DNA of 46,204 bases, taken from NCBI GenBank assembly GCA_013334575.1, contig JAAXXG010000008.1:1-46204 (forward strand), in the 5' to 3' direction. This DNA is from Candidatus Moraniibacteriota bacterium (GTDB lineage Bacteria > Patescibacteriota > Minisyncoccia > Moranbacterales > UBA1568). Shown piece after piece: positions 11,326 to 14,087 of the stretch; positions within the stretch are counted from its first letter, which is position 1, and every line of letters begins with the position of its first letter. Both the position numbers and the translations under genes were made by a program. Under the pieces are notes generated by a model that was not told the DNA's origin, ran no database searches, and saw nothing but the letters and a program-made list of their open reading frames with translations.

Positions 11326-11793
11326 TTACGGGCGCCCTTGCGCGCCGGGATCGTATATCGTCCCGCGCCGATAGCTCTCGATCACCTTCGCGGACGGAAA
11401 GAAAAGCGGGGATGGAAGATCCTCGAGCGGGAACCACCTCCATTCGGTTATCTCGTCGGGCTCCATGACCTTCGGCTCCCCTTCCGACGTTTCGGAAAGA
11501 AACCCGATCGTCACGAAATGCGCGTCCGGTACCCGGTCGTTCGCGAGGCTGATGACACGTATCGAGGAAGGATCGAGCACGATTCCCGTCTCCTCCGCCG
11601 TCTCCCGCACAGCCGATTCCTCGAAGGTCTCACCGAATTCCATCTTACCGCCCGGCATAGTCCATGTCGCTTCCCCGTGCAGTTCCGAATCCGCCTTCTC
11701 GGGATCCTCGTGACGCCGGCCAAGAAGGACCTTTCCATCCCGCAGGATCATGACCCCGAACCCGACTCCGACACGCCTCTTTTCATTCAACAT
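11326..11793 (-). CDS. NUDIX hydrolase
   Basis: Nudix box GGKMEFGETFEESAVRETAEETG. Confidence 0.92.
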   Translation of the reverse strand: MLNEKRRVGVGFGVMILRDGKVLLGRRHEDPEKADSELHGEATWTMPGGKMEFGETFEESAVRETAEETGIVLDPSSIRVISLANDRVPDAHFVTIGFLSETSEGEPKVMEPDEITEWRWFPLEDLPSPLFFPSAKVIESYRRGTIYDPGAQGRP

Positions 11794-11853
11794 AACACTC
11801 TCCGATTATTGCGAATATCGCCCCCAGTATACCATCGGATATCACCGAAACCG

Positions 11854-11883
11854 AAAACACCCCGGCATATGCCGGGGTGTTTT
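11854..11883. terminator. intrinsic terminator downstream of tRNA-Glu
   Basis: AAAACACCCCGGCATATGCCGGGGTGTTTT perfect inverted repeat with A/T tails. Confidence 0.8.
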
Positions 11884-11887
11884 CTTC

Positions 11888-11963
11888 TGGTGACCTCTAC
11901 GGGACTCGAACCCGTGTTCCCACCGTGAGAGGGTGGTGTCCTAGACCGCTAGACGAAGAGGCC
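11888..11963 (-). tRNA. tRNA-Glu(CTC), CCA encoded
   Basis: Cloverleaf; anticodon arm CCACC-CTCTCAC-GGTGG; GGTTCGAGTCC. Confidence 0.96.
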
Positions 11964-11986
11964 GTGTTCTCACTGTTTCATACCGG

Positions 11987-12057
11987 CAGGAGCGGAGGGA
12001 ATCGAACCCCCGACCGCGGTTTTGGAGACCGCTGTTATACCATTTAACTACGCTCCC
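11987..12057 (-). tRNA. tRNA-Trp(CCA)
   Basis: Anticodon arm GCGGT-CTCCAAA-ACCGC; GGTTCGATTCC. Confidence 0.95.
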
Positions 12058-12121
12058 GTCCCGTCATCCGGTCCGGGAGCGGTGCCAGAGAGCCCCCGCG
12101 CCCCTCCCGAGGACGGCCCGT

Positions 12122-12283
12122 CTACTTGCTCTCATTGTGCGGCGTGTGCTTGCGGCAAAACTTGCAGAACTTGCTGAGCGAAAGCTTCTCCTTCACTTTC
12201 TTCTTGTTCCGCGTCGTATAGGTCGTGATACGCCCACATTCCGAGCACTTCATCTTAGCCATGTTGTCCTTGATCTTCCCCAT
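12122..12283 (-). CDS. rpmG: 50S ribosomal protein L33
   Basis: Manual translation MGKIKDNMAKMKCSECGRITTYTTRNKKKVKEKLSLSKFCKFCRKHTPHNESK. Confidence 0.95.
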   Translation of the reverse strand: MGKIKDNMAKMKCSECGRITTYTTRNKKKVKEKLSLSKFCKFCRKHTPHNESK

Positions 12284-12309
12284 ATCGCCTCAAAAAATGT
12301 GACTGCTCC

Positions 12310-12338
12310 AGTGTACGGAAAAGACGGGATTCCGTCAA
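12310..12338 (-). promoter_or_regulatory. putative promoter for rpmG/tRNA-Trp/tRNA-Glu
   Basis: TTGACG, 17 bp, TACACT. Confidence 0.6.
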
Positions 12339-12353
12339 TCCCAGTCCCTCGTG

Positions 12354-12426
12354 AGCCGTTGACCGGGCTTGAACCGGTGACCTTCTCCTTACCATGGAGA
12401 TGCTCTACCAACTGAGCTACAACGGC
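12354..12426 (-). tRNA. tRNA-Thr(GGT)
   Basis: GCCGTTGTAGCTCAG..; anticodon arm TCTCC-ATGGTAA-GGAGA. Confidence 0.95.
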
Positions 12427-12466
12427 GATATCATCGCGATCCACGGAATCCATGCGCTATGGATAT

Positions 12467-12745
12467 CGCTGTGGGCAGGGAGGGAGAAATCCCCTCCCGG
12501 GAGATTTCTCTCCTTCGGGCCGGAGCGCTGCGCACGCTCGCGCCCTTCTCATCCCTTCACTATTTTCAATAACGACTACCACACCCGACGTATGAAACGC
12601 TGAGCACGGTTTTCGCTGTGGGCAGGGAGGGATTCGCCCATTCGGGCCGGAGCGCTGCGCACGCTCGCGCCCTTCTCATCCCTTCACTATTTTCAATAAC
12701 GACTACCACGCCCGACGTATGAAACGCTGAGCACGGTTTTCGCTG
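12467..12745 (-). repeat. two tandem tRNA-Tyr-linked repeat units (127 and 147 bp), each ending in a copy of the tRNA 3' end
   Basis: GTGGGCAGGGAGGGA at 12471, 12618 and 12745; the intervening ~105 bp are near-identical. Confidence 0.92.
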
Positions 12746-12829
12746 TGGGCAGGGAGGGATTCGAACCCCCGAAGGCACAAGGCCGGCAGATTTACAGTCT
12801 GCTCCGTTTGACCGCTCCGGCACCTACCC
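12746..12829 (-). tRNA. tRNA-Tyr(GTA), intact copy
   Basis: GGGTAGG acceptor, GCAGA-CTGTAAA-TCTGC anticodon arm, long variable arm, GGTTCGAATCC. Confidence 0.95.
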
Positions 12830-13087
12830 GTTATCAACTTCCAAACTCTCCCTCAGTCTTTTTCGAAGATCTTTCTTTCCGTCGCTTGTTTTCAGAAAAC
12901 GTTCCCGCCGTTCCGCTTCCGACTTGTAAGTATACGCTTCGTAGCACAGAAGCATGAGTGGTCGTCTCGATTTCGTCGATTCGACATTCCCGCTCCGATG
13001 CTCATCCATCCGCCTTTTCAGGTCTCCCGTCATTCCGACATAAAACTTCCCATCGTTCCCACTCCTCAAAATGTACACGTAATACAT
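12824..13087 (-). CDS. stand-alone GIY-YIG nuclease (87 aa)
   Basis: MYYVYILRS..KFYVGMTGDLKRRMDEH..STKSRRP..YEAY..EAERRERFLK; stop codon lies in nt 4-6 of tRNA-Tyr. Confidence 0.93.
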   Translation of the reverse strand: MYYVYILRSGNDGKFYVGMTGDLKRRMDEHRSGNVESTKSRRPLMLLCYEAYTYKSEAERRERFLKTSDGKKDLRKRLRESLEVDNG

Positions 13088-13097
13088 AAGAAGAACA

Positions 13098-13213
13098 AGG
13101 GATTCGCCCCGCATGCGCGGGGCGTCCGGCGCATGCCGGACGAACCCTAAATCCGAAGGCACAAGGCCGGCAGATTTACAGTCTGCTCCGTTTGACCGCT
13201 CCGGCACCTACCC
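13098..13213 (-). pseudogene. disrupted tRNA-Tyr copy (identical 5' 61 nt, T-arm with insertions, no 3' acceptor strand)
   Basis: 13153-13214 identical to 12769-12830; then a 5-nt insert, GGGTTCG, a 36-nt insert, AATCCCT. Confidence 0.9.
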
Positions 13214-13234
13214 GAATATCTTTTCAACCACCTG

Positions 13235-13307
13235 AGCCGAAGGCCGGATTCGAACCGGCGACCGACGGTTTACAAAACCGTTGCTCTACCAGCTGAGCTA
13301 CTTCGGC
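13235..13307 (-). tRNA. tRNA-Thr(TGT)
   Basis: Anticodon arm ACGGT-TTTGTAA-ACCGT; GGTTCGAATCC. Confidence 0.95.
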
Positions 13308-13340
13308 ACTTCGGACCGACACTCCGACAGACAGTATATA

Positions 13341-14087
13341 TCATCGAGAGCGATCTTCAAACGCCTTCTCCAGTCTCCGGATCTTCACCTTCACGGCGCG
13401 ATTCGTCGGATGAAGCTTGAGCGCCTGCCGATAGCATTCCTTCGCGTCCTGAAGGTTCGATGACGCGAAGTAACAGTCGCCGAGCTCCTCGTACGCCGCC
13501 GCATCTCGCGGGTTCTCGACGATGCGGGCGATAAGCGATTCCTCCCGCGAACCGTCGGCACGGGAAACCGGGGCCGACTCGGGCCGAACGACCCGCTCGC
13601 GGAGCATCGGCCGAGACTCTGCGATTCCGTCGGTCGCGACCACCTTCCCGTTACCGCGAGCTCCCTCTTCTTCCGGAAACGCCTCCTCGAGAAACGCCTT
13701 GGAAGACGTCTCCACGCTTCCCGATTCGTTTCCAGCGGCCTTCCGGGAGAAGACCGAGGAACGTTCGCGTTTCACGGGCTGTTCTCCGAGACTCTTCCTC
13801 ATCGCATCGAGTTCCGTCCGACGTCGCCGCAACTGCTCCAGGGAAGACTGGAAGAAGTTATGAACCCGAAGCGTCGCCGTCTTGAATCTTGATGCGATCC
13901 GTTCGAGCATCTTAAGCAGGAATGCCCGACGAGAAAGGGCGCGGGAATGGGAGGTTGCCCCGGACGAACCGCTCATCGACGAGAGTTTCTCGGCGATATC
14001 GGCATCGCCCATCCTCCTCGAAAGGAACCAGAGGAGCGTTCCGAGCGCGATCACGATCACGAATGGCGGGACGATGAGATACCACAT
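13341..14087 (-). CDS. membrane-anchored TPR protein
   Basis: N-terminal TM; C-terminal TPR (AYEELGDCYF..DAKECYRQALKLHPTN). Confidence 0.85.
   Translation of the reverse strand: MWYLIVPPFVIVIALGTLLWFLSRRMGDADIAEKLSSMSGSSGATSHSRALSRRAFLLKMLERIASRFKTATLRVHNFFQSSLEQLRRRRTELDAMRKSLGEQPVKRERSSVFSRKAAGNESGSVETSSKAFLEEAFPEEEGARGNGKVVATDGIAESRPMLRERVVRPESAPVSRADGSREESLIARIVENPRDAAAYEELGDCYFASSNLQDAKECYRQALKLHPTNRAVKVKIRRLEKAFEDRSR

Follow-up and report, generated by a model that had tools for sequence, protein, structure and literature searches.

What kind of genetic element places the gene of a small nuclease between a partial and an intact copy of the same tRNA gene? The question is raised by contig JAAXXG010000008.1 of assembly GCA_013334575.1 (Candidatus Moraniibacteriota bacterium, phylum Patescibacteriota), which was analyzed over positions 1 to 46,204 (hereafter, the window; contig C14 of the source genome, G000, which comprises 1.13 Mb with 57% GC and is 99% complete). 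On the minus strand, which defines the order of all features of the locus given here, a tRNA-Thr(TGT) is followed by a partial tRNA-Tyr, an open reading frame (ORF) for a GIY-YIG protein of 87 aa, and an intact tRNA-Tyr(GTA). It is very likely that the locus harbors a mobile or selfish element linked to tRNA genes; the element is probably an integrase-free, homing-type cassette of the stand-alone UPF0213 branch of GIY-YIG nucleases, nested in the tRNA-Tyr gene. A mechanism of the homing type is slightly favored as the mode of spread, and cleavage in the T-loop by the clade that targets tRNA-Tyr and tRNA-Ser is a tentative suggestion based on the position of the breakpoints.

The partial and the intact tRNA-Tyr share a direct repeat (13214-13153 and 12830-12769) that is identical at 62 of 62 positions and has a period of 384 nt from start to start. 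The right repeat consists of the first 61 nt of the intact tRNA-Tyr (12769-12829) and the adjoining base (12830), and the last sense codon of the ORF together with its stop codon (GGG TAG, 12829-12824) represents nucleotides 1-6 of the same tRNA, with the stop codon at nucleotides 4-6. Gene order, repeat, and overlap had already been reported in a preliminary description of this DNA, made from the sequence alone, and were all recovered where it had placed them; the continuation of the pseudo-tRNA with a double hairpin, the 127-nt units downstream, and a promoter-like site go beyond it (Table 1). Apart from the 3' acceptor strand, all parts of tRNA-Tyr are represented in the upstream copy, which scores 20.6 bits as a tRNA and thereby falls under the Rfam gathering score of 29. 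The RNA fold of this left module is modestly better than that of shuffled sequences (z = -2.65).

Table 1. Features of the tRNA-Thr/tRNA-Tyr region of the window, in minus-strand order; nt, nucleotides.
Feature	Position	Strand	Remarks
Promoter-like site	13333..13360	-	Upstream of tRNA-Thr(TGT); 9/12 hexamer matches, 16-nt spacer; consensus match only
tRNA-Thr(TGT), resident upstream neighbor	13234..13307	-	ARAGORN; Rfam tRNA 74.9 bits
Left repeat: 1 flank base + tRNA-Tyr nt 1-61	13153..13214	-	Ancestral Thr-Tyr position
Rest of upstream pseudo-tRNA	13098..13152	-	Read directly from the sequence
5-nt linker	13152-13148	-	Directly after left repeat
T-stem/T-loop 5' letters	13147-13141	-	Pseudo-tRNA resumes after linker
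Double hairpin, 34 nt	13140-13107 (13140-13125 and 13122-13107)	-	Two 6-bp hairpins
T-loop/T-stem 3' letters	13106-13098	-	Followed by 10 nt, then ATG
GIY-YIG ORF (UPF0213-type), 87 aa	12824..13087	-	ATG at 13087, TAG at 12826-12824
Intact tRNA-Tyr(GTA)	12745..12829	-	ARAGORN; Rfam 54.9 bits
Two 127-nt tandem units	12506..12759 (12633-12759 and 12506-12632)	-	Each ends in a copy of the tRNA-Tyr 3' end
Third copy of tRNA-Tyr 3' end	12461-12485	-	Downstream of the 127-nt units

Filled, ORF-less, and empty alleles are all present among close relatives of the source genome, in which the preliminary description had proposed to look for an empty allele. The Thr-Tyr-Thr region was mapped in 25 loci among 41 genomes of the order. 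Three of eight genomes of the same genus carry filled alleles (G001, G002, and G008), with a protein identity of 80% for the ORF and a DNA identity of ~81% (the contig of G002 stops inside the hairpins). One genome (G004) is ORF-less: the two tRNA copies and the hairpins are still present, and of the ORF, the final ~45 nt remain. Four genomes are without the ORF at this site (G003, G005, G006, and G007). In G006, the Thr-Tyr spacer has the same length as in G004 (104 nt) and is followed by a single intact tRNA. Members of four other genera (G009, G016, G017, and G020) have clean Thr-Tyr spacers of 20-31 nt, and an empty site in a closer relative is documented by a contig of 969 nt (X4; ~90-95% similarity to the flank in the window) from the Logan collection of public sequencing runs, in which 26 nt separate tRNA-Thr from tRNA-Tyr. 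In the source genome, the spacer between tRNA-Thr and the repeat comprises 19-21 nt, depending on whether the tRNA end is taken from ARAGORN or Rfam. Because empty spacers measure 20-31 nt, it is the upstream copy that occupies the ancestral Thr-Tyr position, in agreement with the cluster position originally assigned to it. The Thr-Tyr site thus displays the presence/absence polymorphism expected of free-standing homing endonuclease genes.

An assembly artifact, i.e., a collapsed repeat or a chimeric join of reads from different strains, would be conceivable for a metagenome-assembled genome and had been considered from the outset, but can practically be dismissed. The same architecture is present in the three filled alleles at only ~81% DNA identity and at other tRNA genes in many unrelated assemblies. 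Its junctions also occur in Logan contigs, which were produced by another assembler (gaps in their coverage carry no weight): X1 and X2, which stem from one study and possibly from the source sample, span the junction between repeat and ORF with 0-1 mismatch, and X1 also spans that between hairpin and repeat. Since the layout recurs in three other species-level genomes of the genus and the junctions are contained in contigs from another assembler, the duplication is not an artifact. One Logan contig that would speak for an artifact, a 401-nt contig of X1, takes an odd path over the 62-nt repeat, running from the hairpin through the repeat into the ORF (within 12769-13152), and this path repeats itself every 384 nt. 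The same would be expected of a unit in tandem or circular form, and equally of a graph artifact at the 62-nt repeat with k = 31, and the contig was not counted as evidence. The depth of the unit in X1 (15.1, compared with 16-18 in the flanks) gives no indication of amplification.

The juxtaposition of a partial and a complete tRNA gene is also the usual scar of integrative elements, as described in excerpts of PMC9897764, and might be taken for the remnant of an integrase-driven island or prophage in tRNA-Tyr that was almost wholly deleted. Such an origin is highly improbable: the duplicated sequence is the 5' part of the tRNA and not the 3' part, the unit measures only 384 bp, and the compact layout with a homologous ORF recurs at many tRNA genes. 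Profile searches with PF00589 and PF00239 confirmed that the window contains no integrase; the sole PF00589 match of the genome is located on another contig (C4:4143-4682), and PF00239 has no match in the whole genome, which leaves contig C14 without a recombinase. The region 12000-14000 contains no relevant inverted repeats and thus no terminal inverted repeats, and a search of 11500-14000 against Rfam yielded no intron match, hence no ribozyme. Among 50,697 phage records, 11 had weak matches to the protein (35-40% identity), which gives no sign that the family is phage-borne.

The link between this protein family and tRNA genes extends far beyond the window. In the main survey (pattern and tblastn scan, one genome per species), which yielded 86 homologs in 80 loci, 24 of the 86 genes end at most 60 nt from the first position of a tRNA gene on the same strand (ORF-upstream type; median gap ~5 nt), and 36 begin at most 300 nt downstream of such a tRNA gene (downstream type); two genes fall into both classes. 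With chance rates of ~0.0015 and ~0.006 per gene for the two types, as calculated from the tRNA density of the source genome, GIY-YIG homologs are associated with tRNA genes far beyond chance. Almost all loci of the ORF-upstream type (22 of 24) contain a fragment of the adjoining tRNA within 450 nt upstream of the ORF (E <= 0.05). In 17 of the 24, the fragment upstream of the ORF comprises at least 14 nt and starts at position 1-3 of the tRNA, compared with none of 24 when the same fragment test was applied to the 450 nt downstream of the tRNA. The expectation that short GIY-YIG homologs would be flanked by duplicated tRNA 5' parts was therefore borne out. The targets comprise the genes of tRNA-Ser (GGA, CGA, and GCT), Tyr, Trp, Glu, Gln, Gly (CCC and GCC), Asn, and Met. 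An independent, HMM-based sample of the phylum contained the family in 147 of 201 genomes, with 0-16 copies per genome. In a replication with 31 genes in 29 loci from this sample, 17 were tRNA-adjacent (7 of the ORF-upstream type and 10 of the downstream type); the association with tRNA genes replicates, and the partial duplication is not universal. One locus of the survey is labeled Planctomycetota, and a few metagenome-assembled genomes labeled Proteobacteria appear to be mislabeled Patescibacteria.

A base-level reading of the upstream copies revealed that they break at one of three loops of the cloverleaf: in the D-loop in the case of Asn, Met, Gln, and Gly-GCC, in the anticodon loop in the case of Glu, Gly-CCC, and Trp, and in the T-loop in the case of Ser and Tyr. 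GC-rich hairpins are located at the break in every case read. Four of the 24 ORF-upstream loci have their stop codon within the tRNA, so that ORF and tRNA overlap by 6-18 nt (window, 12824-12829; L058, L048, and L039). Since the mRNA would lose its stop codon when the 5' end of the tRNA is matured, translation and tRNA processing would compete in these loci. Two loci (L061, 1830-1930, and L077, 1825-1925) possess a second partial copy of tRNA-Glu past the intact tRNA-Glu, which consists of nucleotides 27-35, the same two hairpins, and nucleotides 36-73 or 36-65. Here, ORF and intact tRNA are bracketed by hairpin-containing direct repeats, an arrangement outside what the model proposed below accounts for.

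The downstream type resembles a mirror image of this layout, in which the intact tRNA is followed by a spacer, the ORF, and a 5'-truncated pseudo-copy of the same tRNA. Examples are L099 (1349-1840) and L089 (46-500; Bacteroidota), contig C6 of the source genome (1700-2300), and L080; in two cases involving tRNA-Val, a GC hairpin replaces the anticodon arm of the pseudo-copy. Detectable fragments are present in only 8 of the 36 downstream-type loci of the main survey and in 1 of 10 in the replication.

The source genome itself encodes four GIY-YIG paralogs (41-47% identical to the query), three of which adjoin tRNA genes. The paralog on contig C19 shares the layout of the tRNA-Tyr locus: a repeat of nucleotides 1-35 of tRNA-Glu(TTC), identical at 35 of 35 positions and ending in the anticodon loop, is followed by two small hairpins, the GIY-YIG ORF, and, 11 nt past the stop codon, the intact tRNA. 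The C6 paralog is located 108 nt downstream of tRNA-Ser(GGA). The most divergent paralog (C16, 19700-20700; L004) lies inside an array of 56-88-nt repeats with 4-6 copies; these repeats have a hairpin arm in common with the tRNA-Tyr module, and there is no tRNA gene on contig C16. The GIY-YIG ORFs have a GC content of 45-48%, compared with 59 +/- 4% for long ORFs, and rank in the 9th-25th percentile for GC3, in a reference set that includes shadow ORFs and with a mis-set frame for C16.

A scan of all 47 tRNA genes of the source genome for upstream partial copies starting at position 1 identified seven with such a copy, namely Ser-CGA (1-71), Tyr (1-61), Glu (1-35), Pro-TGG (1-29), Ser-GCT, Ser-TGA, and Ser-GGA. 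Five of the copies are now without an ORF (Ser-CGA, Ser-GCT, Ser-TGA, Ser-GGA, and Pro-TGG), and the remnant at Ser-CGA has retained the identical type of double hairpin in its T-loop. ORF-less, hairpin-split pseudo-tRNAs were observed at C4 29150-29430 (L110), C22 37510-37680 (L111), C8 930-1240, and C4 44660-44705. They precede Ser-CGA (in two generations, one of the D-loop type and one of the T-loop type), Ser-GCT, Ser-TGA (where anticodon loop and T-loop each contain hairpins), and Pro-TGG. Judging from their sequences, these modules look like the graveyards of successive invasions.

The protein is a member of the GIY-YIG superfamily and belongs to its stand-alone UPF0213 branch. Residues 1-71 match PF01541 (E value 9.2e-17; 61.6 bits, cut-off 22.6); the only other Pfam match, T5orf172, overlaps with this region, and there is no second domain. 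The motif of the superfamily comprises the Tyr of 'GIY', the Tyr-x-Gly of 'YIG', a central Arg, and a C-terminal Glu. Residues Y5, Y16, G18, R26, H30, and E62 are invariant in 59 sequences and likewise in a set of 12; roles of the motif residues are stated in part in excerpts of PMC1564403. The family profile matches the UPF0213 structures 1zg2 (BH0048; 5.7e-13) and 1ywl (EF2693; 3e-9), followed by SLX1 (~3e-3). The AlphaFold2 model (pLDDT 92.6) predicts one compact domain with the order strand-strand-helix-helix-strand-helix, in keeping with the GIY-YIG fold, in which helices flank a sheet of three strands. A Foldseek search with this model retrieved UPF0213 (1zg2, 2.3e-4), the nuclease domains of Slx1, and the catalytic domains of I-TevI and UvrC; after UPF0213, the closest solved folds are the Slx1 nuclease domains (TM score 0.60-0.62, root-mean-square deviation [rmsd] 2.2 A), which is the same ranking as in the profile search. 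I-TevI has a DNA-binding domain and SegB a C-terminal DNA-binding part; a separate domain of this kind is absent from the 87-aa protein. It reaches 22.9 bits with TIGR01453 (cut-off 56), and searches of NCBIfam and PHROGs produced only sub-threshold or weak 'homing endonuclease' matches. The nuclease may therefore work like a homing endonuclease, yet outside the architecture of I-TevI and SegB.

Both the ORF and the pseudo-tRNA are maintained. The ratio of nonsynonymous to synonymous substitutions (dN/dS) is 0.035 for G001 and G002, 0.071 among the elements at tRNA-Ser(GGA), 0.078 among those at tRNA-Trp, and 0.17 between elements at tRNA-Tyr and tRNA-Ser(GGA), and the ORFs of the source genome and G001 differ with a pN of 0.13 and a saturated pS of 0.81, which documents purifying selection. 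The upstream copy had been described as damaged; it is, however, no decaying debris. In each genome it is identical to the resident tRNA (62/62 in G000, 60/60 in G001, and 60/60 in G004), although tRNA-Tyr itself differs between genomes at 5-6 positions. The 47-nt hairpin module has undergone three changes between the source genome and G001, two of which form a compensatory pair. Among nine modules at tRNA-Tyr and tRNA-Ser, 99.1% of the cells are paired, with compensatory changes in 4 of 12 pairs, a level that was reached by none of 500 shuffles and no slid control; coming from nine related sequences only, this apparent covariation is support, not proof, of a conserved structure. Because the arm remains identical to the resident tRNA and the hairpins covary while the synonymous sites of the ORF are saturated, the pseudo-tRNA and its hairpins are a maintained module.

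Related cassettes occupy other tRNA genes within the genus and beyond. At tRNA-Ser(GGA) and tRNA-Ser(CGA) of G003 and at tRNA-Ser(GGA) of G006, ORFs 75-79% identical to the protein from the window end 4-6 nt before the tRNA, and ORFs with 53-57% identity end 3-7 nt before tRNA-Trp in G001, G005, G008, and G018. Each is preceded by the 5' part of its own tRNA, with one or more hairpins in a loop and a few additional letters that match the T-loop and T-stem of that tRNA. In a tree of 90 rows and 82 alignment columns, in which many forks remain open, a single clade of 20 rows (98/89) holds only genes of the ORF-upstream type and includes all such elements with long arms. Within this clade, elements at tRNA-Ser and tRNA-Tyr with a T-loop break form one group (97/91), in which the elements at tRNA-Tyr (G000, G001, and G002; 99/82) branch from among those at tRNA-Ser. 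Its other parts are the elements at tRNA-Trp (break at nucleotide 36; 100/97) and at tRNA-Glu (break at nucleotides 28-35; 100/98). In the rest of the tree, the D-loop breakers cluster together (80/90), and the downstream-type genes form a separate clade of 52 rows (85/89). Despite the open forks, geometry, target tRNA, and breakpoint are properties of the protein lineage, which ties the protein to the insertion.

From this pattern, we infer how the cassette spreads, including the cutting of tRNA genes by the nuclease, the position of the cut, repair-mediated copying as the route of transfer, and any role of the hairpins. The cassette would behave as a free-standing homing endonuclease gene, whose product breaks the uninterrupted cognate tRNA gene. 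A filled allele would serve as template for the repair of this break, in which the pseudo-tRNA would be the left and the intact tRNA the right homology arm, so that tRNA homology alone would suffice and a working tRNA would always be regenerated. Recombination between the two 62-nt repeats would delete the cassette cleanly and give rise to empty alleles, and internal deletions would produce the ORF-less remnants. If the tRNA copies serve as homology arms, this would explain that the arm is kept identical, that the working tRNA is regenerated, and that clean loss is possible. Homing fits the data better than transposition because there is one lineage per target, because empty, filled, and decayed alleles coexist, and because near-identical copies within a genome are lacking. 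The core of the earlier proposal, namely that a selfish unit without an integrase targets a tRNA gene and restores a functional tRNA downstream, is well supported by the comparative evidence. The split T-loop of the upstream copy would be compatible with cutting in the T-arm.

The ORF would probably be translated from read-through of the tRNA operon transcript. The promoter-like site at 13360-13333 is a candidate start of a transcript that carries tRNA-Thr, the cassette, and tRNA-Tyr; the region contains three promoter-like sites, compared with 0.8 +/- 0.8 in shuffled sequences, and the consensus scan identified none between tRNA-Thr and the ORF.

Several observations weigh against homing. The protein is a bare catalytic core of 87 aa without a DNA-binding domain, which leaves the model without an account of sequence-specific recognition. 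The filled allele contains an identical, intact tRNA-Tyr, and all other tRNAs keep the T-loop motif, which leaves the immunity of the carrier unaccounted for. A third of the homologs in the main survey (28 of 86, six of them near a contig end) are without an adjoining tRNA by the survey thresholds, as are 14 of the 31 genes in the replication, where a tRNA fragment was present in only three of the seven ORF-upstream loci. Long persistence at one site under strong purifying selection also fits a vertically inherited gene that is useful to the host. Simple homing cannot make a correct 5' duplication after a switch to another tRNA, e.g., from Ser to Tyr. Cutting in the T-arm in particular has to contend with the unchanged T-loop of the intact tRNA and of all other tRNAs, with the missing DNA-binding domain, and with the breaks in the anticodon loop or D-loop of the other clades.

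The switch between tRNAs would be accounted for if the elements moved like transposons. An Slx1-like, structure-specific nuclease would cut one strand of the tRNA gene at position +1 and the other strand in a loop, the cassette would be joined to the cut ends, and fill-in would generate a long target-site duplication, extending from nucleotide 1 of the tRNA to the loop, so that the 5' part of each new target is duplicated. This scheme agrees with the extent of the repeats, which in 17 of 24 loci begin at position 1 of the tRNA and which terminate in its D-, anticodon, or T-loop, and with the proximity of the predicted fold to the Slx1 nuclease domains. Considering the breakpoints at cloverleaf landmarks together with the Slx1-like fold of the model, a structure-guided mode of action would be a serious alternative. 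Transposon-like movement as such is nevertheless unlikely: near-identical copies at several tRNA genes of one genome are missing (the paralogs of the source genome are only 41-47% identical, and two elements of G003 are saturated at synonymous sites), one target class per protein clade is the pattern of homing elements, and terminal inverted repeats were not found. Moreover, a simple target-site duplication does not predict that the upstream copy resumes the tRNA sequence past the hairpins.

A comparably small probability falls to the view that the ORF is a resident, tRNA-linked nuclease gene of use to the host, e.g., a co-transcribed gene in tRNA or RNA metabolism, and that partial copies and hairpins are by-products of recombination or repeats and not the work of the protein. 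It draws on the strong purifying selection at a site retained despite saturated synonymous positions, on the presence of the family in a majority of the sampled genomes of the phylum, and on the many members without a partial duplication. In addition, Dunin-Horkawicz et al. (2006; PMC1564403) mention a prokaryotic Slx1-like GIY-YIG domain fused to a TrmH-type tRNA methyltransferase and suggest a role in RNA metabolism. A host function is, however, difficult to reconcile with the absence of the gene from this site in four of the eight genomes of the genus, the common ORF-less remnants, and a copy number that ranges from 0 to 16 per genome. The same holds for the occurrence of related ORFs at different tRNA genes, where geometry and breakpoint track the phylogeny of the protein.

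On a broader scale, the stand-alone UPF0213 proteins as a class might supply the nucleases for parasites of tRNA genes that form a widespread and as yet undescribed family, each a bare, Slx1-like, structure-guided nuclease that acts at cloverleaf landmarks, a reading that as a whole is speculative. The hairpin-capped pseudo-tRNA would then be a portable homology arm, a device for immunity or processing, or both, and tRNA homology alone would enable the element to reach, by homing, the corresponding tRNA gene in distant species. The downstream type would represent mirror-image forms, and ORF-less pseudo-tRNAs and 3'-end units would be fossils.

Counting those in the two 127-nt units, the 3' end of tRNA-Tyr is present three times in the window. 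The units are probably a phenomenon separate from the cassette, since each occurs without the other: 3'-end units without the GIY-YIG gene are present in G016, G006, and G005, and the gene without the units in G001. At least ten other tRNA genes of the source genome, among them Gly-TCC, Gly-GCC, Gln-CTG, Glu, Arg-TCG, Asn, Asp, and Lys, are followed at ~+140 to +290 nt by a duplicate of their 3' end that begins near position 55-58. The units hold an inverted copy of the 3' half of the T-arm, which enables them to fold into a long stem. Possibly, they are fossils of downstream-type elements; alternatively, they may constitute a family of their own.

The tRNA-Tyr gene of G003 (L029, 1554-1755) and G018 (L020, ~3140-2915, minus strand) contains an insert of ~200 nt in the anticodon loop, and ARAGORN finds no tRNA-Tyr there. 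In a local search, the insert of G003 yielded a full-length match to Intron_gpI with 40 bits (gathering score, 50; E value 5e-9), and at gathering thresholds, Rfam lists no intron in L029 or L020; the insert of G018 is similar by eye. The insert of G003 is a probable group I intron, which would mean that the same tRNA-Tyr gene is parasitized in a second way. In G003, an unrelated ORF of 202 aa (L029, 915-1523) ends 4 nt before the first position of tRNA-Tyr, and a remnant of its 3' end is located in the Thr-Tyr spacer of G007 (L010, ~2240-2060, minus strand). A guess by eye that this ORF is LAGLIDADG-like was dropped, since Pfam gives only a weak helix-turn-helix match; it may be another kind of tRNA-abutting ORF. 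The same locus of G003 also contains a partial second tRNA-Thr(TGT) (742-808; 32 bits with Rfam) directly after the complete one.

If the proposed explanation is correct, it would provide a biological role for UPF0213, a large family whose function is unknown and which reaches 16 copies in genomes smaller than 1 Mb, and show how a minimal nuclease that has no DNA-binding domain can be linked to a target that ranks among the most conserved in biology. Integrative elements and CRISPR, the only sources of tRNA gene fragments named in excerpts of PMC9897764, would be joined by a third source of such partial genes in prokaryotes. Genome annotation is affected in that pseudo-tRNAs are open to miscalling and ORFs overlap the 5' ends of tRNA genes. 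With at least 7 of 47 tRNA genes scarred in a genome of 1.13 Mb, the elements also bear on the evolution of tRNA genes in reduced genomes, and a compact nuclease that acts at tRNA genes would merit enzymatic characterization.

A precedent among known systems is SegB of phage T4, a free-standing GIY-YIG homing endonuclease encoded in a tRNA cluster, which according to excerpts of PMC2330249 recognizes a site with the conserved TpsiC stem-loop motif, cuts tRNA genes, and undergoes copying along with the flanking tRNA genes. In phage T6, SegB drives the tandem amplification of a unit consisting of tRNA-Tyr and segB, with microhomology shared by tRNA-Tyr's 5' end and segB's 3' end (excerpts of PMC13096335). 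SegB thus shows that recognition of the TpsiC motif in tRNA genes, and movement along with these genes, are within the reach of a GIY-YIG enzyme. Like SegB, the cassette has a GIY-YIG domain and resides among tRNA genes. Unlike the phage-borne segB, which is far larger (it was cloned from a 687-bp fragment) and is located between complete tRNA genes, the cassette is cellular, encodes a bare UPF0213 domain of 87 aa, and lies inside a tRNA gene together with a hairpin-split partial copy.

In its single domain of ~90 aa, the protein resembles the UPF0213/YhbQ-type proteins 1zg2 (BH0048) and 1ywl (EF2693) and the Slx1 domain. The two structures are named by their depositors only as hypothetical UPF0213 proteins, and a full-text literature search found no paper that links UPF0213 to tRNA genes. 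Slx1, which is no mobile element, acts jointly with Slx4 on branched DNA. Integrase-driven islands and prophages, which reportedly (Williams, 2002) duplicate the 3' part of the tRNA, share several traits with the cassette. Both target a tRNA gene, leave a partial and a complete tRNA as direct repeats, and preserve tRNA function (excerpts of PMC9897764). In contrast to these islands, which comprise kilobases and encode a recombinase, the cassette measures 384 bp, has no recombinase, duplicates the 5' part from position 1, and carries hairpins in a loop.

Group I introns with homing endonucleases in the anticodon loops of bacterial tRNA genes are likewise selfish elements inside a tRNA gene that stays functional; the cassette differs in that function is kept by duplication of the DNA and not by splicing of the RNA. 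The logic of the cassette is the same as in the mitochondrial atp6 gene of the fungus Allomyces, where a free-standing GIY-YIG ORF carries a replacement piece of the invaded gene, with GC-rich double hairpins nearby; the gene stays functional, and the displaced piece becomes a pseudogene. While the system of Allomyces is organellar and involves the 3' part of a protein-coding gene, the cassette is bacterial, involves a tRNA gene, and has its hairpins inside the loops of the pseudo-copy. A literature search, which covered the full text of openly searchable articles, yielded no account of stand-alone GIY-YIG genes from cells that lie inside tRNA genes and are accompanied by hairpin-split partial copies. 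The position of the nuclease gene in a partly duplicated tRNA gene, and that of its relatives at many other tRNA genes, points to a little-described kind of selfish DNA that is related to the known free-standing homing endonuclease genes.

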